A stretch of DNA of 64,000 nt from Escherichia coli (GTDB taxonomy: Bacteria > Pseudomonadota > Gammaproteobacteria > Enterobacterales > Enterobacteriaceae). Each line of letters opens with the position of its first letter. Position 1 is the stretch's first letter. Of this stretch, positions 5,427 to 62,545 are shown piece by piece. The stretch lies in NCBI RefSeq assembly GCF_013315695.1, contig NZ_CP054353.1. The stretch is one strand, 5' to 3'. The position numbers were made by a program, and so were the translations under genes. The notes beneath the pieces were generated by a model, which saw only the letters and a program-made list of their open reading frames with translations, had not been told where the DNA came from and did not search any database.

Positions 5427-8400
5427 CTATTCCCAATCCAGCCCTTGTGGCGAACTTGAAAATCCCGCCTCACGCAGCAGCGTAAACATCGGCGTTGGTC
5501 GGACTGGTAGATCATTCACTTCTGTCAGCGTAAAGCGCAGCCGTGGTTCGCGACGCAGTGCGGTAGTCAGCGCATGGAAAACCTCTGGGGCGAGTAATTC
5601 CTCTTTTTCCTGCCAGACCAGCATTTTTTTGCCACCTTGCGCCAGATAAAGTAACAATTTGCCGCCAGAAACGACCACCAGCGCACCCGCCCGACGCGTT
5701 GGAACCAGCGTTGCCGGATGTGCAGGCCAGGGCAGAAGACTTCCCCACACATTAGCCGGATCGTTGGCGGAGAGCGCCACTGGTGTATAGTGGCGCGTTT
5801 GCGCGGTTTGTGTCGCCAGGTCACGCAATCGGTCAATAGTCAGACGTTCAGCGAATTGCGCGCCACCCAGACCTTCTACAAAACGACCCCGCATAATTCG
5901 CCCGGAGTCTTCCATACTTCGACAAAGCGTTTGCATCGATGGAAAACCGCCAGGGATATTTTCGGCTATCACCGCCTGACGACTGATGATGCCGTAGCGG
6001 TCGAGCATATTTTCCGCCAGCGCCAGCATCCTTTCGGTATCGTTTAGTGGCTCCACCTGCAATAACGACCAGCGTCCGGCCAGCTTTGGTGTGTTGTAAG
6101 ATACCCGCGGCGAGACGGGTTGCGCATAGACAGGACGCCCACGACGAGCCCGGTGACTGCGGCGAGTTGAGGTGCGTGCGTTGGAACTGCTGCGGGTGAG
6201 GGCGCGTAACGGTGCCCAAATATCGCTGGTGATGACGCCTTGCCAGACCAGCGCCCATAACGCCTCTTGCAGTGCCGAGGGATCAACCGATTCGCCGATT
6301 TTATCGCGTATCCGTTGGCTGATTTGTTGTGCAAACCAGGCTCCTCCGTCAGCCAGAACAGCGACTATCGCTTGCTGCAGCGCCGAACGATTCGCCTGAT
6401 CCGCTTCGGCGGGAGTGAACGATTCTGCGGCATATTCCTGTAGATGCAGTGCCACCAGGCCGTCATCTTCACCCAGCTTTTTTTGTCCCGACCAGATAAC
6501 CGCTCCGGTTGCCAGTAATTCATCGAGCATTTCTGGCGAATAGTCGCGTACGCGGGCAGGCAGGATCTGGCTTTCCCAGAGTGAGGCGGGTAAACCGACT
6601 CCTGCAAGCTGTTCGATCACCCGCATCACGCCATCCACGCCCTCATAAACGCCTGGCGATGTTGAGGCAAAGAGTGCCGGGCTACCATCGGTGGCGGGTA
6701 ATACGCCCTGACGTTCCAGCAGCAATCGCGCATAGGTCGTGGCCGCAACGGGACGTGTCGCTTCTCTGGCGGCTTGCAGCGAGCGCAAACGCAGACGACG
6801 AAATACTTCATCGCTCACCCAGATGTCTTGTTGCAGATTCATCACCAGACCCTGTTCGCGCAGTTGCTGAAGTTGCTCTTCGACAATGGCAATACCGAGA
6901 CTAAACTCATGAGCCAGTTGTTCAGCCGTGACCAGAGCATGAGCCCGGAGATAGCGCAGAAAGAGGTCGCGAAGCGGGTAACTGACTCGGTGCAAATAAA
7001 TCTCTGGCAGTGACTCTGGTAGTCGTACGCCGAGGGCATCGCGCAGCCTGGCGGCATCATCCATACAGGCAAGACGCTCCTGCCCGCTAATCATCGTCGG
7101 GAAGATTCGTTTTACTGCAAGAAGATTTTCCAGATACGACGCAATCTCTTCACTGCTGCCTGTATGCCGTTGCGCCAGGTCTTCAACGGTCATTGGCCCC
7201 AGTTCGCGCAGCAGGTCGAACAATCCTTCTTCACCTTTCGCTCTTCTGCCAGGAGCCAGTCGTTGCAACTCTTCTTCCACCTGGCGAATGACCTGCGGGT
7301 CGAGTAATTCCCCCGGTTCGACCTGTCCGAGTAGATTGCGCAGTAACTCGCTGTCCAGCGACAGTACGGATGCCCGGCGCTCTGCCAGCGGGGCGTCGCT
7401 CTGGTACATAAATTCCGCGACATAGCCGAACAATAAACTGGCGGCGAAAGGCGAGGGCGTAGTGGTCGTTACATCGGATATTTGAATTTCGCCACCGTTC
7501 AGGCGACGCATCAAACGTTCCAGCGCGGGAAGATCATAAACATCTTGCAGACATTCGCGTAGGGTTTCGAGAATGACCGGAAAATCCGGATATCCCTGAG
7601 CGATTTCCAGCAACTGACTGGCGCGCAGTCGTTGTTGCCAGAGCGGGGTGCGATGGCCCGGCGTGCGGCCCGGCATTAATAATGCCCGCGCGGCGCATTC
7701 GCGAAAACGGGCGGCGAAAAGTGCCGAGCTGCCTACCGCCTCGCGGACAATTTGCAGCAACTTTTCTGGTTCAAACAAAAAAATCGCGGCATCAGGCAAT
7801 TTACCATCGGTGTCAGGAATGCGCGCAACAATGCCGTCATCACTGGCAACCACAGACGCGTCAGCGCCCCATAGTGCATGTATTCGCCCGGCAATCGCCA
7901 GCGCCCAGGGTTCATGCACCCGTCTTCCATAGGGAGAGTGCAAAATAATACGCCAGTCACCAATTTCATCACGGCACCGTTCGAGGACAAGATGACGACT
8001 ACCTGGAACGATACCCGTCGCGTTGCGCTGCTCGTCAATCAACCCCTGAATATTGGCGATCGTATTTTCTTCTGCCAACCACGGGGGAATAGTCCCGGAA
8101 AAGAACGCGCCATCCGCCAGTAAATGGAGAAAATCGCCGATCATCTCGCCTAATTCTGCCGGACGTCCGTTACCTTCACCACGCCAGAAGGGAAGGCGGG
8201 CAGAACGACCTGGAGCAGGAGTCACAATCACCTGATCGCGGGTGATTTGCTGGATCCGCCATGAGGTTGCGCCAAGAGTGATAATATCGTTCACCCGTGA
8301 CTCATATACCATCTCCTCATCCAGTTCACCCACCCGCCGCGAACCGGCCTGTTCTTCACCTTCGGGTAATAACACGCTATACATGCCACGATCCGGAATG

Positions 8401-29987: not shown

Positions 29988-32684
<2,697 letters not shown>

Positions 32685-42916: not shown

Positions 42917-42962
42917 CAGATTAAAGGTTGACCAGTATTTTTATTTTAATGAGGAGTCCCTT

Positions 42963-45838
<2,876 letters not shown>

Positions 45839-45853
45839 GGTAATGACTCCAAC

Positions 45854-46357
45854 TTATTGATAGTGTTTTATGTTCAGATAATGCCCGATGACTTTGTCAT
45901 GCAGCTCCACCGATTTTGAGAACGACAGCGACTTCCGTCCCAGCCGTGCCAGGTGCTGCCTCAGATTCAGGTTATGCCGCTCAATTCGCTGCGTATATCG
46001 CTTGCTGATTACGTGCAGCTTTCCCTTCAGGCGGGATTCATACAGCGGCCAGCCATCCGTCATCCATATCACCACGTCAAAGGGTGACAGCAGGCTCATA
46101 AGACGCCCCAGCGTCGCCATAGTGCGTTCACCGAATACGTGCGCAACAACCGTCTTCCGGAGCCTGTCATACGCGTAAAACAGCCAGCGCTGGCGCGATT
46201 TAGCCCCGACATAGCCCCACTGTTCGTCCATTTCCGCGCAGACGATGACGTCACTGCCCGGCTGTATGCGCGAGGTTACCGACTGCGGCCTGAGTTTTTT
46301 AAGTGACGTAAAATCGTGTTGAGGCCAACGCCCATAATGCGGGCTGTTGCCCGGCAT
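45854..46357 (-). CDS. insB: IS1 transposase InsB
   Basis: 167-aa [61 protein letters not shown]... Confidence 0.95.
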
Positions 46358-46551
46358 CCAACGCCATTCATGGCCATATCAATGATTTTCTGGTGCGTAC
46401 CGGGTTGAGAAGCGGTGTAAGTGAACTGCAGTTGCCATGTTTTACGGCAGTGAGAGCAGAGATAGCGCTGATGTCCGGCGGTGCTTTTGCCGTTACGCAC
46501 CACCCCGTCAGTAGCTGAACAGGAGGGACAGCTGATAGAAACAGAAGCCAC
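46276..46551 (-). CDS. insA: IS1 InsA
   Basis: 91-aa [46 protein letters not shown]... Confidence 0.95.
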
Positions 46552-46606
46552 TGGAGCACCTCAAAAACACCATCATACACTAAATCAGTAAGTTGGCAGC
46601 ATCACC

Positions 46607-47310
46607 TTCGTGATGAAGGGGTGTATAACAGCCAGACGGGAAAATACGATAAACATCGCGCACGTTCTTTTTTAGCCGCCAGTTGGCATGATGATACCAG
46701 TCGCTATTCTCTGGGGGCATCGGTACAGAAAGATGTTTCCAATCAGTTACAAAGTATTCTCGAGAAAAGCATACCGCTCGACCCGAATTATACGTTGAAA
46801 GGGGAGTTGCTCGGCTTTTACGCGCAACTTGAAGGTTTAAGTCGTAATACCAGCCAGCCCAATGAAACGGCGTTAGTTAGTGGACAATTGACCTGGAATG
46901 CGCCGTGGGGAAGCGTATTTGGCAGTGGTGGTTATTTGCGCCATGCAATGAATGGTGCCGTGGTGGATACCGACATTGGCTATCCCTTTTCATTAAGTCT
47001 TGATCGTAACCGTGAAGGAATGCAGTCCTGGCAATTGGGCGTCAACTATCGTTTAACTCCGCAATTTACGCTGACATTTGCACCGATTGTGACCCGCGGC
47101 TATGAATCCAGTAAACGAGATGTGCGGATTGAAGGCGCGGGTATCTTAGGGGGTATGAACTATCGGGTCAGCGAAGGGCCGTTACAAGGGATGAATTTCT
47201 TTCTTGCTGCCGATAAAGGGCGGGAAAAGCGCGATGGCAGTGCGCTGGGCGATCGCCTGAATTACTGGGATGTGAAAATGAGTATTCAGTATGACTTTAT
47301 GCTGAAGTAA
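46607..47310 (+). pseudogene. uidC: Outer-membrane glucuronide porin uidC, 5'-truncated (C-terminal ~230 codons remain)
   Basis: 229-aa ORF starts immediately after IS1; beta-strand-rich sequence ending ...YDFMLK; position between uidB and ydgA. Confidence 0.7.
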
Positions 47311-51985: not shown

Positions 51986-52004
51986 ACAGAGCCGCCCTTC
52001 GGGG

Positions 52005-53430
52005 TAATGCCGATCAGTTAAGGATCAGTTGACCGATCCAGTGGCTGTGTAAGAATCCGGAAACGCTCACTTGTTTCCGGATTTTTTTATGCACATTGGA
52101 CAGGCTCTTGATCTGGTATCCCGTTACGATTCTCTGCGTAACCCACTGACTTCTCTGGGGGATTACCTCGACCCCGAACTCATCTCTCGTTGCCTTGCCG
52201 AATCAGGTACTGTAACGCTACGCAAGCGCCGTCTTCCCCTCGAAATGATGGTCTGGTGTATTGTTGGCATGGCGCTTGAGCGTAAAGAACCTCTTCACCA
52301 GATTGTGAATCGCCTGGACATCATGCTGCCGGGCAATCGCCCCTTCGTTGCCCCCAGTGCCGTTATTCAGGCCCGCCAGCGCCTGGGAAGTGAGGCTGTC
52401 CGCCGCGTGTTCACGAAAACAGCGCAGCTCTGGCATAACGCCACGCCGCATCCGCACTGGTGCGGCCTGACCCTGCTGGCCATCGATGGTGTGTTCTGGC
52501 GCACACCGGATACACCAGAGAACGATGCAGCCTTCCCCCGCCAGACACATGCCGGGAACCCGGCGCTCTACCCGCAGGTCAAAATGGTCTGCCAGATGGA
52601 ACTGACCAGCCATCTGCTGACGGCTGCAGCCTTCGGCACGATGAAGAACAGCGAAAATGAGCTTGCTGAGCAACTTATAGAACAAACCGGCGATAACACT
52701 CTGACGTTAATGGATAAAGGTTATTACTCACTGGGACTGTTAAATGCCTGGAGCCTGGCGGGAGAACACCGCCACTGGATGATACCTCTCAGAAAGGGAG
52801 CGCAATATGAAGAGATCAGAAAACTGGGTAAAGGCGATCATCTGGTGAAGCTGAAAACCAGCCCGCAGGCACGAAAAAAGTGGCCGGGACTGGGAAATGA
52901 AGTGACAGCCCGCCTGCTGACCGTGACGCGCAAAGGAAAAGTCTGCCATCTGCTGACGTCGATGACGGACGCCATGCGCTTCCCCGGAGGAGAAATGGCG
53001 GATCTGTACAGTCATCGCTGGGAAATCGAACTGGGATACAGGGAGATAAAACAGACGATGCAACTGAGCAGGCTGACGCTGAGAAGTAAAAAACCGGAGC
53101 TTGTGGAGCAAGAGCTGTGGGGTGTCTTACTGGCTTATAATCTGGTGAGATATCAGATGATTAAAATGGCGGAACATCTGAAAGGTTACTGGCCGAATCA
53201 ACTGAGTTTCTCAGAATCATGCGGAATGGTGATGAGAATGCTGATGACATTGCAGGGCGCTTCACCGGGACGTATACCGGAGCTGATGCGCGATCTTGCA
53301 AGTATGGGACAACTTGTGAAATTACCGACAAGAAGGGAAAGGGCCTTCCCGAGAGTGGTAAAGGAGAGGCCCTGGAAATACCCCACAGCCCCGAAAAAGA
53401 GCCAGTCAGTTGCTTAACTGACTGGCATTA
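52005..53430 (+). mobile_element. IS4 copy 1 (1426 bp), no target-site duplication
   Basis: 18-bp imperfect terminal inverted repeats TAATGCCGATCAGTTAAGG / CCTTAACTGACTGGCATTA; flanks ccgcccttcgggg vs gtccccagggaga differ. Confidence 0.93.
52089..53417 (+). CDS. insG: IS4 transposase (DDE, IS4 family)
   Basis: [66 protein letters not shown]...; identical to the ORF in copy 2. Confidence 0.93.
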
Positions 53431-54230
53431 GTCCCCAGGGAGACGTTTTCTCCCGTAGCCAGTATTTTTCCATTACGCATCAGAGAGACACCCACGCCCG
53501 ATGCTTTTGTTGCATCTGGTGCTGTGTTAGCAAACACATGTCTGGCACTGTCAGTGGTAGCACCCGAAAGATAAAATGAGAGTTTTTGTTCACTTGAGCA
53601 ATATACGCCAAGGGGTATTTCTGCGCTTCCAGGAAAGTCCGGGAGATTCACGGTGACATTACGACTATCAACGGTGCAACCGCCTGTTGGCATAACAACA
53701 CTGTTATTTGAAATAATATTCCACGTAAAATTACGCGGATTTCCGCTTCCTAACGTGGCAATTTTATACATATGAATACGGGCAATAACTTCCCCTGCTT
53801 TTATGACAACTCCACCGGCCGCTCCGACTGGGGTAATATAGAGTTTTAACGGTAATGGCATCGGTGTCTTATCACCAATATCTAATACATTAGTATTTGT
53901 CGTCAACGGGAAGGGGTAGGTCACATTATTCCAGTACAGTGATCCTTTATATGACTGTAGGGAGCCTGCGAAAGCTGATCCTTGTACCAGGTTTATATGA
54001 TCAGTGTCGTACCAGCCGCCGTAATCATTCCAGCAACTTATATGCTGAGACAAGTCTACAACCAGATTCTGGCCCGGTTGTATTACAGGGTCGAGATTAA
54101 CATAAACAGAGGTTGTACCTGCTCCAATACTTGACCCGCCATCGACATTACAACTGAAGGCAAAAACTTTGCCTGCCATTAATAGAAGATAAATACCGAA
54201 CAGAAGCTTCATACTTATTGTTTTACCCAT
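53431..54230 (-). pseudogene. ydeQ: FimH-like fimbrial tip adhesin (ydeQ-like), C-terminus truncated by IS4
   Basis: 274-aa ORF aligns to FimH-type adhesins (GQNLVVDLS...VMPTGGCTV...VNLPDFPGS...) but stops 7 codons inside IS4 copy 1, missing roughly the last 35 residues. Confidence 0.7.
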
Positions 54231-54289
54231 GATATATCCTAAGGTTAAAAAATTGATTTAAAAAGGAGGCTAAGAAAATCGAATCGACG

Positions 54290-54793
54290 TTATTGCCAGG
54301 TGTAGATCACATTGATTAGCGCCTCGATCGTTCCCTGGCTTGCGTTTCCATTCACCGTGATAGCTCTTGCCTTAAGTGGAAACTGTGCATTACGAGTGAT
54401 CTCATCAACAATAACCGTTTTGCTATCGCCATTTTTTAACGTCGCATCCTGGTCATCCCTTAGCTCTATCTGAATATTTTCGGCTGTACCTTCATTTTTG
54501 TAATACCCCGTATTGTCAGTTGAACCTGTCACGATTGCCGTCACTGCACTTGTTTCAACCGGACAATCGGTTAATGACAAAGTAATATTGTGCCAGCCAG
54601 ATGCAGAACCAGGTTGTTGCAGATTGCGTGTATAAAGATCCCCGAGATTAACGTTAGCTTCTTTGGTTTGAATAGTGCATGGTTTAGCGCCTACCCGACC
54701 ATTAACAGTGATAGTGACATCGGCGGCCTGGAGAGTTGCTGTGAATAATGTGCAAAACGTAGCTAACAGGAACCTCTTGTGAAGTCTTTTCAT
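54290..54793 (-). CDS. ydeR: Fimbrial minor subunit (ydeR-like), 167 aa
   Basis: Signal peptide plus type 1 pilin-like sequence ending ...YTWQ; length matches remembered YdeR. Confidence 0.7.
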   Translation of the reverse strand: MKRLHKRFLLATFCTLFTATLQAADVTITVNGRVGAKPCTIQTKEANVNLGDLYTRNLQQPGSASGWHNITLSLTDCPVETSAVTAIVTGSTDNTGYYKNEGTAENIQIELRDDQDATLKNGDSKTVIVDEITRNAQFPLKARAITVNGNASQGTIEALINVIYTWQ

Positions 54794-54805
54794 ATCTGAC
54801 TCTGA

Positions 54806-55336
54806 TTATTGAAATTCAAGGGTAAAGGTTGCCGAAGCGCTCACCAGTCCAGGATTGACGGACTTCTGAGTTGACTTCAAACGAGCGGAGTAAGGCAAAA
54901 TATTGTTCTGTTCTGGTACCAATGGGATCCACTGCATCTCGGCATGAAGGTCATTCAATTTCACCGGACGCATATTTCCGTCCAGTATTTCTATACCCAA
55001 ACCGGAGGCCGTATTGCTTCCTTCATCCAGTTTCAACAGAGTATTATTTTCTGCATCCTCAATACCGTTAAATGCAACCCGAACTCCCGTTGTCCCTTTG
55101 CTGCATTCACTTAATGTAATCTGAAAAGGGACGGCTGGACTTGTGCTACCGGTCGTTGGAAATTGTCTGGCACTGTTTTTTTGGAGATCTACGGTAAAAT
55201 TAAGCGAATCCGATGAGACTGTGCAGCCATAATCGAGAACGCGCCCGCTAATTTTAATAACGCTATCTGCGGATAAAGCAGAATAGGTGGTTAACCCCAG
55301 ACATAAACCGAGGAAAATAACGTTATTGTATTTCAT
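54806..55336 (-). CDS. ydeS: Fimbrial subunit (ydeS-like), 176 aa
   Basis: Signal peptide plus pilin fold ending ...TFTLEFQ; length matches remembered YdeS. Confidence 0.7.
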   Translation of the reverse strand: MKYNNVIFLGLCLGLTTYSALSADSVIKISGRVLDYGCTVSSDSLNFTVDLQKNSARQFPTTGSTSPAVPFQITLSECSKGTTGVRVAFNGIEDAENNTLLKLDEGSNTASGLGIEILDGNMRPVKLNDLHAEMQWIPLVPEQNNILPYSARLKSTQKSVNPGLVSASATFTLEFQ

Positions 55337-55349
55337 AATCTATTGTTCC

Positions 55350-56149
55350 TTAGCGACAGATTGCTGTCTGCTGGTTCAGCAAGGTTCCAGGAGAGACTGC
55401 AGGAAGCTTGTAATCGACAATACAGTTTGAGTTTTTATCATTGCCCCATGAAACCTGTAATTTCCCTGACTGCGGAAGTCCAGTCAGATAAACCTGACCA
55501 TTTTCCGCGACAATGCTGCCATTTTTATTCTCTCCGTGAGTGACAATTGCACCGAATGGAACGCTTTTATTACCGTACTTCAACGTCATTAATACTTTCC
55601 CGCCGATTTGTGCATTAAATGTTGCTCTGGCAATAGCACCGTGAGTTGGGATGACAGTGACTACGGTTTCATCCAGTTCAACATTATCTGCAAGGGAATT
55701 CGCGTTAAGAGCGACACGATTTTCTCTATATTCTGTCGCAAATGGTAATATGGCATAGCCACGCCAGTCGGTATGAATTCCGGTCTGGTTCTCTATTTTG
55801 ACATTATCAGCGCCAGGAGCCTTAACCAGAACCATTGTGTCGCCCAGCGGCTGTCCAAAGGTGATGCCATCAGCATGAGCAATAATCCCACCACTCATTC
55901 CGTAATAAATCTGGCTGCTGTCACCACTCCGACTGTAACCGACATTCGTATTACCGTAAGCTCCACGATAATTAAGAGAACTGTAACCATTGGTGCCAGA
56001 CGATGTATTACCCCCTTGGGTGTTACCGACCTGAACGCTATAATTCAGGTTATTATCCGGCAGCAGAGTGCCATAAACCCCTGATAGGTTGGTCATGCCG
56101 CCTTTCAAATCGTTTGACATACTGTAACTGGCGTTTGAATTACGAAATG
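55350..56149 (-). pseudogene. ydeT: Fimbrial usher C-terminal fragment (ydeT-like), interrupted upstream by IS2
   Basis: ORF 55350..56177 resembles FimD-family usher C-terminal domains; ORF start lies inside IS2. Confidence 0.7.
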
Positions 56150-56240
56150 TAGACTGGCCCCCTGAATCTCCAGACAACCAGTATCACTTATTTAAGTGAT
56201 AGTCTTAATACTAGTTTTTAGACTAGTCATTGGAGAGCAG

Positions 56241-56606
56241 ATGATTGATGTCTTAGGACCGGAGAAACGCAGACGGCGTACCACACAGGAAAAGATCGCA
56301 ATTGTTCAGCAGAGCTTTGAACCGGGGATGACGGTCTCCCTCGTTGCCCGGCAACATGGTGTAGCAGCCAGCCAGTTATTTCTCTGGCGTAAGCAATACC
56401 AGGAAGGAAGTCTTACTGCTGTCGCCGCCGGAGAACAGGTTGTTCCTGCCTCTGAACTTGCTGCCGCCATGAAGCAGATTAAAGAACTCCAGCGCCTGCT
56501 CGGCAAGAAAACGATGGAAAATGAACTCCTCAAAGAAGCCGTTGAATATGGACGGGCAAAAAAGTGGATAGCGCACGCGCCCTTATTGCCCGGGGATGGG
56601 GAGTAA
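56241..56606 (+). CDS. insC: IS2 InsC (OrfA)
   Basis: [56 protein letters not shown]... Confidence 0.93.
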
Positions 56607-57469
56607 GCTTAGTCAGCCGTTGTCTCCGGGTGTCGCGTGCGCAGTTGCACGTCATTCTCAGACGAACCGATGACTGGATGGATGGCCGCCGCAGTCGTCA
56701 CACTGATGATACGGATGTGCTTCTCCGTATACACCATGTTATCGGAGAGCTGCCCACGTATGGTTATCGTCGGGTATGGGCGCTGCTTCGCAGACAGGCA
56801 GAACTTGATGGTATGCCTGCGATCAATGCCAAACGTGTTTACCGGATCATGCGCCAGAATGCGCTGTTGCTTGAGCGAAAACCTGCTGTACCGCCATCGA
56901 AACGGGCACATACAGGCAGAGTGGCCGTGAAAGAAAGCAATCAGCGATGGTGCTCTGACGGGTTCGAGTTCTGCTGTGATAACGGAGAGAGACTGCGTGT
57001 CACGTTCGCGCTGGACTGCAGTGATCGTGAGGCACTGCACTGGGCGGTCACTACCGGCGGCTTCAACAGTGAAACAGTACAGGACGTCATGCTGGGAGCG
57101 GTGGAACGCCGCTTCGGCAACGATCTTCCGTCGTCTCCAGTGGAGTGGCTGACGGATAATGGTTCATGCTACCGGGCTAATGAAACACGCCAGTTCGCCC
57201 GGATGTTGGGACTTGAACCGAAGAACACGGCGGTGCGGAGTCCGGAGAGTAACGGAATAGCAGAGAGCTTCGTGAAAACGATAAAGCGTGACTACATCAG
57301 TATCATGCCCAAACCAGACGGGTTAACGGCAGCAAAGAACCTTGCAGAGGCGTTCGAGCATTATAACGAATGGCATCCGCATAGTGCGCTGGGTTATCGC
57401 TCGCCACGGGAATATCTGCGGCAGCGGGCTTGTAATGGGTTAAGTGATAACAGATGTCTGGAAATATAG
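56564..57469 (+). CDS. insD: IS2 transposase InsD (OrfB, expressed by -1 frameshift from insC)
   Basis: 301-aa ORF overlapping the insC 3' end in the -1 frame; DDE integrase-type sequence. Confidence 0.93.
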
Positions 57470-57480
57470 GGGCAAATCCA

Positions 57481-58125
57481 AAATGCCGACTGACTGTCTG
57501 TGCGCATCCAATGACTAAAGGGAACATTAAGCGTAAAAGCGAGTAAATGATCCCGATCGTTTTGCCATATATTATTGGAATAGCTGTAATTCAGCGAAGT
57601 CGTAATATCACTAAACGGCACATTTAATCCAAATGATATTTGCTGGTCGCTGCGTGACGTGTTCCAGTAACTTTGGCGACTGGCACTGAAAAATGTCGTA
57701 CCGTAATTTCCAAGCTGCTGAGAGATGCTTATTTGTTCCTGACCACGCTTACTGTAGAACAGATTAAAATAATCAATAAATTGTGTCTGCTCATTGCTGT
57801 CTCCGGTAGGAGGCTTGACGGTGTAACCACTCATTCGACTGTAGGCACTGTCGGATAAGTTATAAAAACCTTGCGTAGAATAGCGATATCCTGCGACCTG
57901 GATATTGGTTCCCGTCTGGTAGAAGGATTTGCTGTAGACGGATTTAATCGATTGCCCGCTGTGACGGGTGCCATCTGCAAGTGTCGTATTGGCCTGCGTG
58001 ATATCGAAAGAAAAGGCACCAAAAAGTCCTAAATCTTTACCAATACCAAGGTTGAAGGCCTGATAATCTTCTGCAATTTGCATTCCGCCATAAGGCGTCC
58101 AGTTTCCTTCCAGTCCATGCATCAA
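57481..58125 (-). pseudogene. ydeT: Fimbrial usher internal fragment (ydeT-like); N-terminal part of the usher absent
   Basis: ORF 57394..58125 is usher-like until it runs into IS2; together with 55350..56149 about 480 codons, roughly half of a full usher; upstream is AT-rich non-coding. Confidence 0.65.
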
Positions 58126-58506
58126 GTCATTCTGTTATTGCTTATAAAACAAGAATCATTCTTGATGGGATATTGCCCTGAGAATATAGTTTCCAGGGTT
58201 ATTACATTTCACGAAGAACGATAATATCTTTAAATTACAAGGACACCTAATCACAACAAGTTTATTGCAGCACTTGTTGTAGAGAGTATTTGCAAAGACA
58301 TTTTATGTCGCTAAATAACATGACGATTTCATTATGCATGTTATTTATAAACCGTGACTAAACAGAATATTATTGCGAACAAGGGAAGTGTCAGGAAAGG
58401 TCAAGAGCGACCAATGGTTTATATGGCTATAAATCATTAGCTATAGTTAATGTTTGCCTGGTGTAACTAACACGGAATTGCTCTAAACAGATAAGTGCAG
58501 GGTTTA

Positions 58507-58761
58507 TTAAAGCTGACCGACAGACTTTCTTAACCTGGTAATATCTCTCTTAGGTGACTCTCCAAACATCCGCGAATATTCCCGACTGAAATGGGATAAG
58601 CTTTCGTAACCGACAACATAGGCTGCAGTGGTGACATCGTAATGTTCATTCAGCATCAGTCGCCTGGCTTCATTGAGGCGTAGCCATTTCTGATACCGGA
58701 GTGGACTCATTCCCGCAAGCTGTATGAAGTGTTGATGGAAAGAGGGGGTGTTCATTTGCAC
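58507..58761 (-). pseudogene. yneL: AraC-family regulator C-terminal HTH fragment (yneL-like)
   Basis: 84-aa ORF with AraC-type second HTH (...YVVGYESLSHFSREYSRMFGESPKR...); no intact N-terminal domain upstream. Confidence 0.6.
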
Positions 58762-59150
58762 GCGGTTTGCCAGCCTGACTCTTCAACGCAGGGAAGATGC
58801 GGCAAACGGCAAACCTGCATACCAGCCAGCCTATATCCGGTATGCACAGGCCAATCATGAAAGAGGAGAGGCTTTATGTTCTGGAACCCTGAAGTAATAA
58901 CGACGACCGGAAAATCGCTTCGCATCACTCAAATCACATTTAACATAATATACATTATGCGCACCAACATAAACCAAGGAAGAATCCAGTCGTTGGCGGT
59001 CATGATTGTCGTGCTCATTAATAACGACCAAACCCCATATTAACTGCCGCATCAAAAACGCCATGATCCGCGCGATGCCTGGGCCTCCATCTGATTCATG
59101 AAAGTGACAACGGTCTGGCATAACGGCTGGCTAACCACTCCGGTGCATAC

Positions 59151-61119
59151 TTAAAGGTGTGCGCGCCGTTGGCTAACTTCGTTAAGTTCGCCGGTCACGT
59201 TTTTTAGCGTTAACAGACCGTCACTAGCAATATTTCCTCTGCCTAACCCCTGCGTATTGTCGAGGCTGACTTCCGCATTTGGGCTAATGCTGGTTAACGC
59301 ATTGTAGCGTGCATTAAGCCCCTCGATAGCCAGTGTTCCCCCTGTAACATTCAGGTTTCCGCCACCTGTCAGTTCGCCCTGACTGATCCCACCTTTATTC
59401 ACCGTCAGCGAACCTTCTTTGAACAAAACAGTCGAACCCATCAGCCCGGTGAATGTCTCCACCGTCTGGGCCGATCCATTAAGATCGACGATGGCCGCGT
59501 TGCTGATGTTCAGTTCCCGGGTGTTGCCCAGCGCGCCATCCGCATCGGTACGTAATGTCCCCATCTGAACATAGGTTGCCCCCTGATAGTCGTTCTGACC
59601 GTTGGAAAGCGAAACCTGTCGCACCGTATTGATTGCCAGATCCCCTTCACCACCGATTTTTGCCGACATATCGGCCGTTGCGCCATAGGCTCCGCCATGT
59701 TCGGCTAACGTCAGCTTTTGCCCTCCATGGATGTTCAGCGCTTTCAGCCCATAGTTAACGTACAAACCATCACCTGGTGCGGTCGTGAGGCGGAATCCAT
59801 AATCACCCTCGGCGACCACCGTTCCGTTTTGCGCAATGTGTAACGTTTTGTCCGCTTCCACCTCGTCGCCCTGTAAATCACGTAACGTTAATGAGCCACC
59901 CGACCCAATAACCGTTTGCGCCTTCACCAGTTGAACGCCGACATGGCTATCATCGTGTTCCAGCAAATTGAGCGTCGTCAGAGGGTTATTCGCCATGGGA
60001 TCATTCCACGGTTTAGGCACGTCGATAAGCACGTCGCCCGTCCCGTTTACCTGATAGTTACGGCCTTTCCAGGTGTAGTCACCCGCGCCGACAACCAGCG
60101 TATCGACGCTGATATATCCCTCTGCAAGCGTCGCAGCAGGAATATCCGTATCGAAAATGAGCGTACCGCCATTCATGGCCAGTCCACCAATGGATTGCTC
60201 TCCCACTTTTACCGATGTGGTATTTTCACTGTCAGACTGCAACATCGCGTGAGTAAGCGCAGCGGTGTTGTCGCGTTCCAGAGTGAAGGTACTGTCTTTC
60301 AGTTGGGCAACACCGGCGAATTCAGTCCCTGTTGCATGGGTAAAGCCAAATATCTTGTCGGAGGATGACAGCTGCACTCGCATCAAGCCATCGCCTTTGA
60401 GCGCATTGGTCAGCGTGTAATCTCCTGCGCTGTTCGTTGATGCGAGAATGTCGAGCGTACCGGGGCTTGCAATGGTGACTTCACTCGAACCCATGCCTGT
60501 TACCCCATCTGCCGTATGTGACGCAATAGTCAGGAGGCCGTCATTGACCAGCGTTTTACCGCTATAAGTATTCCCTGCATTGAACACCGTATGGCCTGCA
60601 TCATGCATCACTTTTCCGTCTTTATCGTCACCCGTAATCAGCATATCGACCTGGTAGCCGGCATCACTGTTATTGGTATGATTAAAGACAAAAACGCCTT
60701 CGCCAAGACCAAACTCCACTTTCGTCGCATTGGTAATAAACCCGGCATCTGCCGCCACCTCACCGTGAGCAGCACCAATGTTTAGCGTTCCTACAGCAGG
60801 CTCAAAAACACCTAAGTAAACTTCTCCACCTTCGACATTCAGCGTGCCGTTATTCGTCAGGGTTAACGTACCTGTGCCAGTCGTCCCTACGTTCATATTG
60901 AATGTTTCAAGAAGAGAGTTCTGCCCATCCACCCGCACGTCGCCCTTACTTTTGTCATTCAGAGCTATCTGTGTATCACGCGCTTTAACTATACCTCCGG
61001 TGGTAATATTCAGTTCACCCGTACCTAATACACCGACCTGTAGCAATTGGGCGTTAGTAGATGACGTTTTTAAATTCCAGAGACTATCCGTTGAAATATT
61101 AACTATCCCCTTACCGGAG
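59151..61119 (-). pseudogene. AIDA-I-like autotransporter adhesin passenger domain, C-proximal part (no beta-barrel translocator follows)
   Basis: ORF 59151..61046 (631 aa), Gly/Thr/Asn-rich beta-helix-type repeats (TGTGTLTLTNNGTLNVEGG...); ends ...EVSQRRAHL without a barrel domain. Confidence 0.7.
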
Positions 61120-62545
61120 TAATGCCGATCAGTTAAGGATCAGTTGACCGATCCAGTGGCTGTGTAAGAATCCGGAAACGCTCACTTGTTTCCGGATTTT
61201 TTTATGCACATTGGACAGGCTCTTGATCTGGTATCCCGTTACGATTCTCTGCGTAACCCACTGACTTCTCTGGGGGATTACCTCGACCCCGAACTCATCT
61301 CTCGTTGCCTTGCCGAATCAGGTACTGTAACGCTACGCAAGCGCCGTCTTCCCCTCGAAATGATGGTCTGGTGTATTGTTGGCATGGCGCTTGAGCGTAA
61401 AGAACCTCTTCACCAGATTGTGAATCGCCTGGACATCATGCTGCCGGGCAATCGCCCCTTCGTTGCCCCCAGTGCCGTTATTCAGGCCCGCCAGCGCCTG
61501 GGAAGTGAGGCTGTCCGCCGCGTGTTCACGAAAACAGCGCAGCTCTGGCATAACGCCACGCCGCATCCGCACTGGTGCGGCCTGACCCTGCTGGCCATCG
61601 ATGGTGTGTTCTGGCGCACACCGGATACACCAGAGAACGATGCAGCCTTCCCCCGCCAGACACATGCCGGGAACCCGGCGCTCTACCCGCAGGTCAAAAT
61701 GGTCTGCCAGATGGAACTGACCAGCCATCTGCTGACGGCTGCAGCCTTCGGCACGATGAAGAACAGCGAAAATGAGCTTGCTGAGCAACTTATAGAACAA
61801 ACCGGCGATAACACTCTGACGTTAATGGATAAAGGTTATTACTCACTGGGACTGTTAAATGCCTGGAGCCTGGCGGGAGAACACCGCCACTGGATGATAC
61901 CTCTCAGAAAGGGAGCGCAATATGAAGAGATCAGAAAACTGGGTAAAGGCGATCATCTGGTGAAGCTGAAAACCAGCCCGCAGGCACGAAAAAAGTGGCC
62001 GGGACTGGGAAATGAAGTGACAGCCCGCCTGCTGACCGTGACGCGCAAAGGAAAAGTCTGCCATCTGCTGACGTCGATGACGGACGCCATGCGCTTCCCC
62101 GGAGGAGAAATGGCGGATCTGTACAGTCATCGCTGGGAAATCGAACTGGGATACAGGGAGATAAAACAGACGATGCAACTGAGCAGGCTGACGCTGAGAA
62201 GTAAAAAACCGGAGCTTGTGGAGCAAGAGCTGTGGGGTGTCTTACTGGCTTATAATCTGGTGAGATATCAGATGATTAAAATGGCGGAACATCTGAAAGG
62301 TTACTGGCCGAATCAACTGAGTTTCTCAGAATCATGCGGAATGGTGATGAGAATGCTGATGACATTGCAGGGCGCTTCACCGGGACGTATACCGGAGCTG
62401 ATGCGCGATCTTGCAAGTATGGGACAACTTGTGAAATTACCGACAAGAAGGGAAAGGGCCTTCCCGAGAGTGGTAAAGGAGAGGCCCTGGAAATACCCCA
62501 CAGCCCCGAAAAAGAGCCAGTCAGTTGCTTAACTGACTGGCATTA
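61120..62545 (+). mobile_element. IS4 copy 2 (1426 bp) with perfect 13-bp target-site duplication
   Basis: Same terminal repeats as copy 1; ccccttaccggag at 61107..61119 and 62546..62558. Confidence 0.95.
61204..62532 (+). CDS. insG: IS4 transposase
   Basis: Translation identical to copy 1. Confidence 0.93.

Follow-up and report, generated by a model that had tools for sequence, protein, structure and literature searches.

In 40% of the genomes surveyed, all the phylogroup A strains included, the F9 (Fml/Yde) chaperone-usher operon of Escherichia coli is broken by deletions, truncations and insertion elements (Wurpel et al., PMC3966885). Intact F9 (Fml) operons are present in SMS-3-5, CFT073 and O157:H7, and a full-length usher was found to be retained in many genomes, e.g. 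those of SMS-3-5 and O157:H7. In K-12, the corresponding locus carries the pseudogene ydeT, in the order ydeQ-ydeR-ydeS-usher remnant-AraC-like pseudogene, from which the usher 5' end and the chaperone and major-subunit genes have been lost. The other described system relevant here is the insertion sequence IS2 (IS3 family, IS2 group; insC/insD), which in K-12 is 1331 bp long, has an A6G slippery site and imperfect terminal repeats and is flanked by a 5-bp target duplication.

The stretch of E. coli DNA analysed here (64 kb in total, hereafter the window) contains an F9 locus with the same location and synteny as K-12 ydeT, in which the usher gene is both truncated at its N-terminal side and interrupted by a copy of IS2. 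The K-12 locus is free of IS2 and its ydeQ is intact, whereas in the window IS2 is present and ydeQ is cut. The remaining genes are 97-99% identical to those of the intact F9 operon and lie in the same chromosomal neighbourhood; only ydeS, ydeR, the 5' part of ydeQ and two fragments of the usher gene are kept (Table 1). These match the F9 operon in homology and in order, while the major-subunit and the chaperone genes are absent, and tblastn searches with the full chaperone and major-subunit proteins found neither anywhere in the window. The locus is a degraded derivative of the F9 operon. From what is generally known of chaperone-usher systems, the leftover ydeS and ydeR products cannot build a fimbria, there being no major subunit, chaperone or functional usher. 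The surrounding 10 kb are heavily eroded as well, with IS4 in ydeQ, an AraC-like pseudogene, hipA scraps and a second IS4 that splits an autotransporter gene; hipBA persists at the locus only as scraps and ydeP has been displaced by an IS4-linked rearrangement. The two flanks of the IS4 in ydeQ do not match each other, so this copy has been rearranged. The comparisons described below suggest that IS2 very probably inserted first and that the deletion which truncated the usher came later, in the course of a stepwise decay of the F9 operon within one E. coli clone.

Table 1. Features of the F9 locus in the window (window coordinates) and the deletion alleles mapped on the intact F9 locus of SMS-3-5 (reference locus L007)
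Feature	Position	Strand	Basis or remarks
IS4 truncating ydeQ	52005..53430	+	IS4 end at 53430
ydeQ', F9 adhesin gene reduced by IS4 to its 5' part	53431..54230	-	'fimbrial protein, missing C-terminus' in AF3 and MSB1_4I annotation
ydeR, F9 minor subunit, intact ORF, 167 aa	54290..54793	-	ORF; annotation
ydeS, F9 minor subunit, intact ORF, 176 aa	54806..55336	-	lies downstream of the disrupted usher; AF3, MSB1_4I and K-12 have ydeS/fimF annotated at the corresponding position
F9 usher gene, 3' fragment, residues ~618-883 and stop codon	55350..56149	-	tblastn with SMS-3-5 usher (residues 609-883, 96% identity); Pfam
Left target-site duplication copy, AAATG	56145..56149		read from sequence; same flank in AF3 and MSB1_4I
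IS2 left junction			TTACGAAATG / TAGACTGGCC
IS2, complete, 1331 bp	56150..57480	+	end-to-end alignment to K-12 W3110 IS2
IS2 imperfect terminal inverted repeats	56159-56190 and 57441-57472		arms 78% complementary; repeat finder
IS2 orfA, insC-type, 121 aa	56241..56606	+	Pfam HTH_Tnp_1, E=2e-19; protein identical to that of K-12
A AAA AAG (A6G) slippery site, predicted programmed -1 frameshift giving OrfAB transposase	56558..56564	+	located in sequence; intact
IS2 orfB, insD-type, 301 aa, DDE integrase core	56564..57469	+	Pfam rve, rve_3, HTH_21
Right target-site duplication copy, AAATG	57481..57485		read from sequence
IS2 right junction			GCAAATCCA / AAATGCCGAC
F9 usher gene, middle fragment, residues ~405-618	57486..58126	-	tblastn; alignment to SMS-3-5
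Deletion junction with 6-bp microhomology ATCAAG	58121..58126		alignment to intact SMS-3-5 operon; junction sequence CCATGCATCAAGTCATTCTG
AT-rich non-coding region, 34% GC, 380 bp, normally upstream of the F9 major-subunit gene (operon 5'/promoter region)	58127..58506	-	aligns to SMS-3-5 L007 starting at 7007 and, in KW21, to the DNA upstream of the fimA remnant
Window and MSB1_4I deletion	L007 4065-7006
K-12 deletion	L007 3851-7132
KW21 deletion	L007 4821-6758
O157:H7 TR01 deletion	L007 6864-7242
AF3 deletions	L007 4899-5417 and 5744-7344

The element was compared with the IS2 copy adjoining yaiO in K-12 W3110, to which it aligns over 1331 of 1331 bp with 99.47% identity and no gaps; five of its seven mismatches, all of them point differences, fall within the first 110 bp. 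Its first bases, as read from the sequence, are TAGACTGGCCCCCTGAATC and its last GGGGCAAATCCA, and its termini (TAGACTGG... and ...CAAATCCA) are the same as those of the K-12 element. One terminal repeat is a base longer than the other, owing to which a naive ungapped comparison of the ends looked poor; the question was settled with the repeat finder and the K-12 comparison. Both orfA and orfB are open and overlap, the orfB protein differing from that of K-12 at a single amino acid, and the corresponding CDS is annotated as 'programmed frameshift' in AF3, MSB1_4I and K-12. The element thus agrees with IS2 in its length (~1.33 kb) and identity, in the two-ORF layout with a -1 frameshift, in its imperfect terminal repeats and in its 5-bp duplication, and it is complete and apparently functional. 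Its left end occurs only once in the whole of the window. The K-12 copy examined is flanked by ATTAC, and the site in the F9 usher is none of the K-12 IS2 sites.

The initial annotation described this element as a simple insertion with an AAATG duplication, and this was borne out by the flanks, AAATG/TAGACTGG... on the left and ...CAAATCCA/AAATG on the right, and by reconstruction of the empty site. Removal of IS2 together with one AAATG (joining 56149 to 57486) restores one open minus-strand frame of 478 aa, and no gap is needed to align the rejoined DNA with the intact SMS-3-5 usher, from which it follows that IS2-free genomes hold a single AAATG at this site. A bare 5-bp match would arise by chance about once in 1024 cases, which is of no consequence here because the empty site is restored exactly. 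IS2 interrupts the usher at codons Ala618/Phe619, in the orientation opposite to that of the usher. Its footprint is that of standard transposition, while the neighbouring deletion is flanked by microhomology.

The rejoined usher covers residues ~405-883 of the 883-aa F9 fimbrial usher and matches the Pfam families PF00577 (Usher; profile positions 190-549 of 549, E=1e-111) and PF13953 (PapC_C; E=3e-22); no match to PapC_N was found in the rejoined protein, nor to the Usher profile before position 190. With the full usher as the tblastn query, the window yields matches to residues ~402-883 only, residues 1-401 being found nowhere in the 64 kb. The barrel and the C-terminal domain of the FimD/PapC family are therefore represented and the N-terminal parts are not; the usher is a gene remnant rather than a functional family member, the signal peptide, N-terminal domain and first third of the barrel that a functional usher needs being missing.

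The N-terminal truncation and the AT-rich, non-usher DNA upstream of it, both reported in the initial annotation, are likewise confirmed, and the tblastn search for a missed usher N-terminus leaves the truncation standing. The position 58125 given there as the boundary is an internal ATG that opens the mechanical ORF; usher homology stops at 58126 and the true deletion junction lies at 58126/58127. The intact sequence has the hexamer ATCAAG at each end of the deleted segment, and a single copy remains at the junction in the window, leaving the position of the junction ambiguous over 6 bp. The DNA missing relative to the SMS-3-5 locus amounts to 2942 bp and comprises usher codons 1 to ~404, the chaperone and major-subunit (fimA-like) genes in their entirety and ~50 bp of DNA ahead of the major-subunit start codon.

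Genome counts were obtained with an empty-site query and with 200-bp junction queries on 5426 complete E. coli genomes; a query with the whole region including IS2 is swamped by IS2 copies, and the resulting figure of '80 genomes at 80% or more' mixes unrelated arrangements. The remnant had been taken in the initial annotation for a ydeT-type usher with an ancestral truncation; the usher is indeed truncated in the manner of ydeT, but the truncation is not that of K-12. The usher remnant of K-12 W3110 extends as far as the equivalent of window position 57912, where it is joined to the equivalent of 58252 through a deletion of 3282 bp with a 1-bp overlap. The window therefore retains 57913-58251, missing from K-12, i.e. 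214 bp more of the usher and 125 bp more of the upstream DNA, and does not share the identical endpoints of a K-12-type ydeT allele. Identity of the two truncations was thus rejected, as the endpoints differ on both sides, and the K-12 lesion is of the same kind but an independent deletion. The K-12 deletion encloses that of the window and could in principle have derived from a window-like allele; the lineages differ, however (~2-3% divergence), and this route has no evidence in its favour. Other alleles include an IS3-family insertion at a different position, with further losses, in IAI39.

Two of the 5426 complete genomes, MSB1_4I (LR898874) and AF3 (OZ547117), contain the exact IS2-usher junction. 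MSB1_4I shares with the window the IS2 insertion in its site, orientation and duplication, the IS4 in ydeQ and the 2942-bp deletion, and is colinear with window positions 1-49901 with 5 mismatches; its locus is split into two halves, separated by 88 kb and inverted relative to each other, the inversion breakpoints lying at IS2, and the window represents the un-inverted state. It is the only one of the 5426 genomes in which the deletion junction of the window is contiguous. AF3 carries IS2 at the identical site, in the same orientation and with the same AAATG duplication, and its IS2 differs from that of the window by one nucleotide. Over 52001-58126 (one mismatch and one gap) and 58465-62427 (one mismatch) the two are 99.97% identical, i.e. 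1-2 changes over ~10 kb of flank. AF3 also shares the IS4 in ydeQ, as a simple insertion with a 12-bp duplication (GTCCCCAGGGAG).

Beyond the equivalent of 58126, AF3 differs from the window in having two deletions, of 519 bp and 1601 bp, in place of the one of 2942 bp. It continues with 834 bp more of unbroken usher, after which come, in turn, the 519-bp deletion, a 326-bp piece of the chaperone gene and the 1601-bp deletion, which ends at the equivalent of 58465, so that AF3 is without window positions 58127-58464 (338 bp). Since AF3 and the window each keep DNA that the other has lost, neither allele can be derived from the other, and their common ancestor consequently held both segments and had more of the operon. 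On this comparison, IS2 must already have been present in that ancestor, unless two separate insertions hit the same base. Both of the AF3 deletion junctions are found in AF3 only among the 5426 genomes; since the three deletion junctions are limited to IS2 carriers, all three deletions are private to the clone that carries IS2. Given deletions that are not nested, in strains that are nearly identical and have the IS2 insertion in common, parsimony makes insertion before deletion the most likely order.

This reverses the order put forward in the initial annotation, in which the usher first lost its N-terminal half through an ancestral, K-12-like truncation and IS2 later struck the remnant. Such a sequence would agree with a truncated usher that carries an intact IS2 duplication, and with the K-12 ydeT truncation, an old one, whose junction is found without IS2 in K-12 and in 1374 of the 5426 genomes. 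We nevertheless regard it as very improbable, as the K-12 endpoints (3851/7132) differ on both sides from those of the window (4065/7006), the junction of the window was not found without IS2 in any of the complete genomes or in a metagenome scan, and AF3, which contradicts this order, has IS2 yet keeps the 834-bp usher segment and the 326-bp piece of the chaperone gene that the window lacks. The 5-bp duplication, which had been taken to imply insertion after truncation, is silent on the timing of a deletion 641 bp away; its intactness shows only that the ends of IS2 have not been rearranged since insertion. Two metagenome contigs were found to carry the deletion junction, both with IS2 at the AAATG site; on one of them (OGOT01003468.1), unrelated DNA lies to the left of IS2 and 3 of 5 mismatches fall in the first 163 bp of the element, so that it is a probable assembly switch between IS2 copies and uninformative for the left junction.

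The shared insertion could also be explained if IS2 had entered the AF3 and the window lineages separately, each time at this AAATG and in this orientation, after each had undergone its own deletions, the site being a hot spot. The usher is repeatedly hit by IS3-family elements elsewhere, and ~15 genomes, e.g. IAI39, show an IS2-like end 0.06-0.6 kb away. None of those insertions is at this position, however, the exact junction being confined to two clonally related genomes; the IS2 copies of AF3 and the window differ by a single nucleotide against 0.5-2% among IS2 variants elsewhere; and the flanks are 99.97% identical, with the adjoining IS4 insertion in ydeQ also common to both. Independent insertion is accordingly held to be extremely unlikely. 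That the deletion allele and the IS2 allele originated in different strains and were brought together by homologous recombination, through a crossover within the intervening 641 bp, is very unlikely as well. E. coli does recombine and the region is prone to rearrangement, with IS4- and IS2-associated inversions in the clone, and a short tract exchanged between very similar strains would leave no trace; but no IS2-free donor of the deletion was found among the 5426 complete genomes or in the metagenome scan, and the usher fragment 57486-58126 is identical to that of AF3, with no sign of a mosaic.

The close relatives in the complete-genome collection are two only, and no IS2-free member of the clone displays the ancestral state directly: a search with the IS4-ydeQ junction found 100% matches in AF3 and MSB1_4I only, three other genomes, of other lineages, matching at 97.5%. 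The 519-bp deletion of AF3, which lies inside the region deleted in the window, could predate IS2, in which case the element would have hit an usher without its first ~126 codons.

With insertion preceding the 2942-bp deletion, the history of the locus may be outlined as follows. IS2 would have entered the usher at codons 618/619 by ordinary transposition, in the opposite orientation and duplicating AAATG, in an ancestor shared by the window strain, MSB1_4I and AF3, at a time when the usher extended at least 834 bp further in the 5' direction and the chaperone sequence and the operon upstream region were still present. With the usher inactivated by IS2 and the adhesin gene ydeQ by IS4, the operon would have been dead and selection on it relaxed. 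The sub-lineages would then have lost different pieces independently through small illegitimate deletions, the lineage of the window and MSB1_4I losing 2942 bp between two ATCAAG hexamers, including the 5' 1.2 kb of the usher, and AF3 losing 519 bp and 1601 bp instead.

At least six deletion alleles were mapped at this locus, and five of them overlap the start region of the major-subunit gene or the DNA upstream of it. Independent deletions may have struck the 5' end of the F9 operon (promoter region and start of the major-subunit gene) repeatedly across E. coli, a proposal which we consider tentative and on balance doubtful. The shared flanks of the sister strains differ by about one substitution per 5-6 kb, and inactivation by an insertion sequence followed by three further private deletions may have taken place in this clone within a very short evolutionary time. 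If the cause were selection to silence or remove F9, or a local mutational hot spot in H-NS-bound AT-rich DNA, and not neutral decay, the locus could serve as a natural clock for the speed at which a dead operon erodes. In itself, the case is the ordinary decay of a pseudogene at a locus known for frequent disruption; IS2, its 5-bp duplication and the frequent disruption of F9/ydeQRST are known, the same allele is public in MSB1_4I, and the importance beyond correct annotation is small. With regard to method, a target-site duplication cannot tell whether an insertion is older or younger than a deletion close by; sister strains with non-nested deletions can, and here they reverse the order that had been proposed. 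The locus thus provides a small worked example of the stepwise, lineage-private erosion of an operon after its inactivation by insertion sequences.

The adhesin gene ydeQ of the F9 fimbrial operon is truncated by a copy of IS4, the right flank of which (GTCCCCAGGGAG) belongs to ydeQ, while the left flank in the window is DNA of the manA-fum side and carries no duplication matching the right flank. The near-identical strain AF3 has this IS4 as a simple insertion, flanked by a 12-bp duplication and adjoining ydeP. It follows that an IS4-mediated rearrangement is present in the window and in MSB1_4I, another near-identical strain, and places the manA/fum region beside ydeQ', the 5' part of the gene. 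A further IS4 copy, oriented like the first and bounded by a 13-bp duplication (CCCCTTACCGGAG), splits an ECSE_1600-type autotransporter gene. An AraC-like HTH pseudogene (yneL-type) is followed by just two scraps of hipA; the deletion relative to K-12 takes out hipB and the greater part of hipA.

Coordinates of the features in the window
Feature	Position	Remark
Internal repeat	30037-30458	96 bp offset; about 91% identity over 326 bp
uid region	approx. 42960-47310	uidA fragments of 467 aa and shorter
IS1 end	46606	
IS4 in ydeQ	52005-53430	
AraC-like pseudogene and hipA scraps	58507-59192	
hipA scrap 1	59047-59099	
hipA scrap 2	59100-59192	
Autotransporter barrel fragment (ORF)	59151-61046	one side of second IS4
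Second IS4	61120-62545	
Autotransporter ESPR signal-peptide part		opposite side of second IS4 from barrel fragment

In the window, uidA has lost its continuous reading frame; in MSB1_4I, the gene is annotated as frameshifted and an IS1 lies between uidB and uidC. The window strain is probably beta-glucuronidase-negative. The internal repeat falls within the gene that corresponds to rsxC in MSB1_4I.

In MSB1_4I the usher::IS2 locus is split into two halves, separated by 88 kb and in inverted orientation (L005 8395-8450; L006 5090-5130). One IS2 copy, lacking its last 14 bp, adjoins a prophage exonuclease gene and the other adjoins the rest of the same gene. The arrangement looks like an IS2-associated inversion of a kind other than simple exchange between a pair of complete IS2 copies. 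In the metagenome contig OGOT01003468.1, which carries the usher deletion junction of the window, the DNA left of IS2 (L011 1-938) has no match to the window or to the two compared MSB1_4I loci, and the contig has three of its five mismatches within the initial 163 bp of IS2; the probable explanation is a switch from one IS2 copy to another during assembly.

Across different lineages, the 5' half of the F9 operon has suffered at least six independent deletions (L001, L002, L003 and L004, compared with the intact operon of SMS-3-5, L007 3851-7344), five of which overlap the start region of the major-subunit gene or its upstream DNA. The K-12 deletion allele by itself is present in 1374 of 5426 complete genomes.
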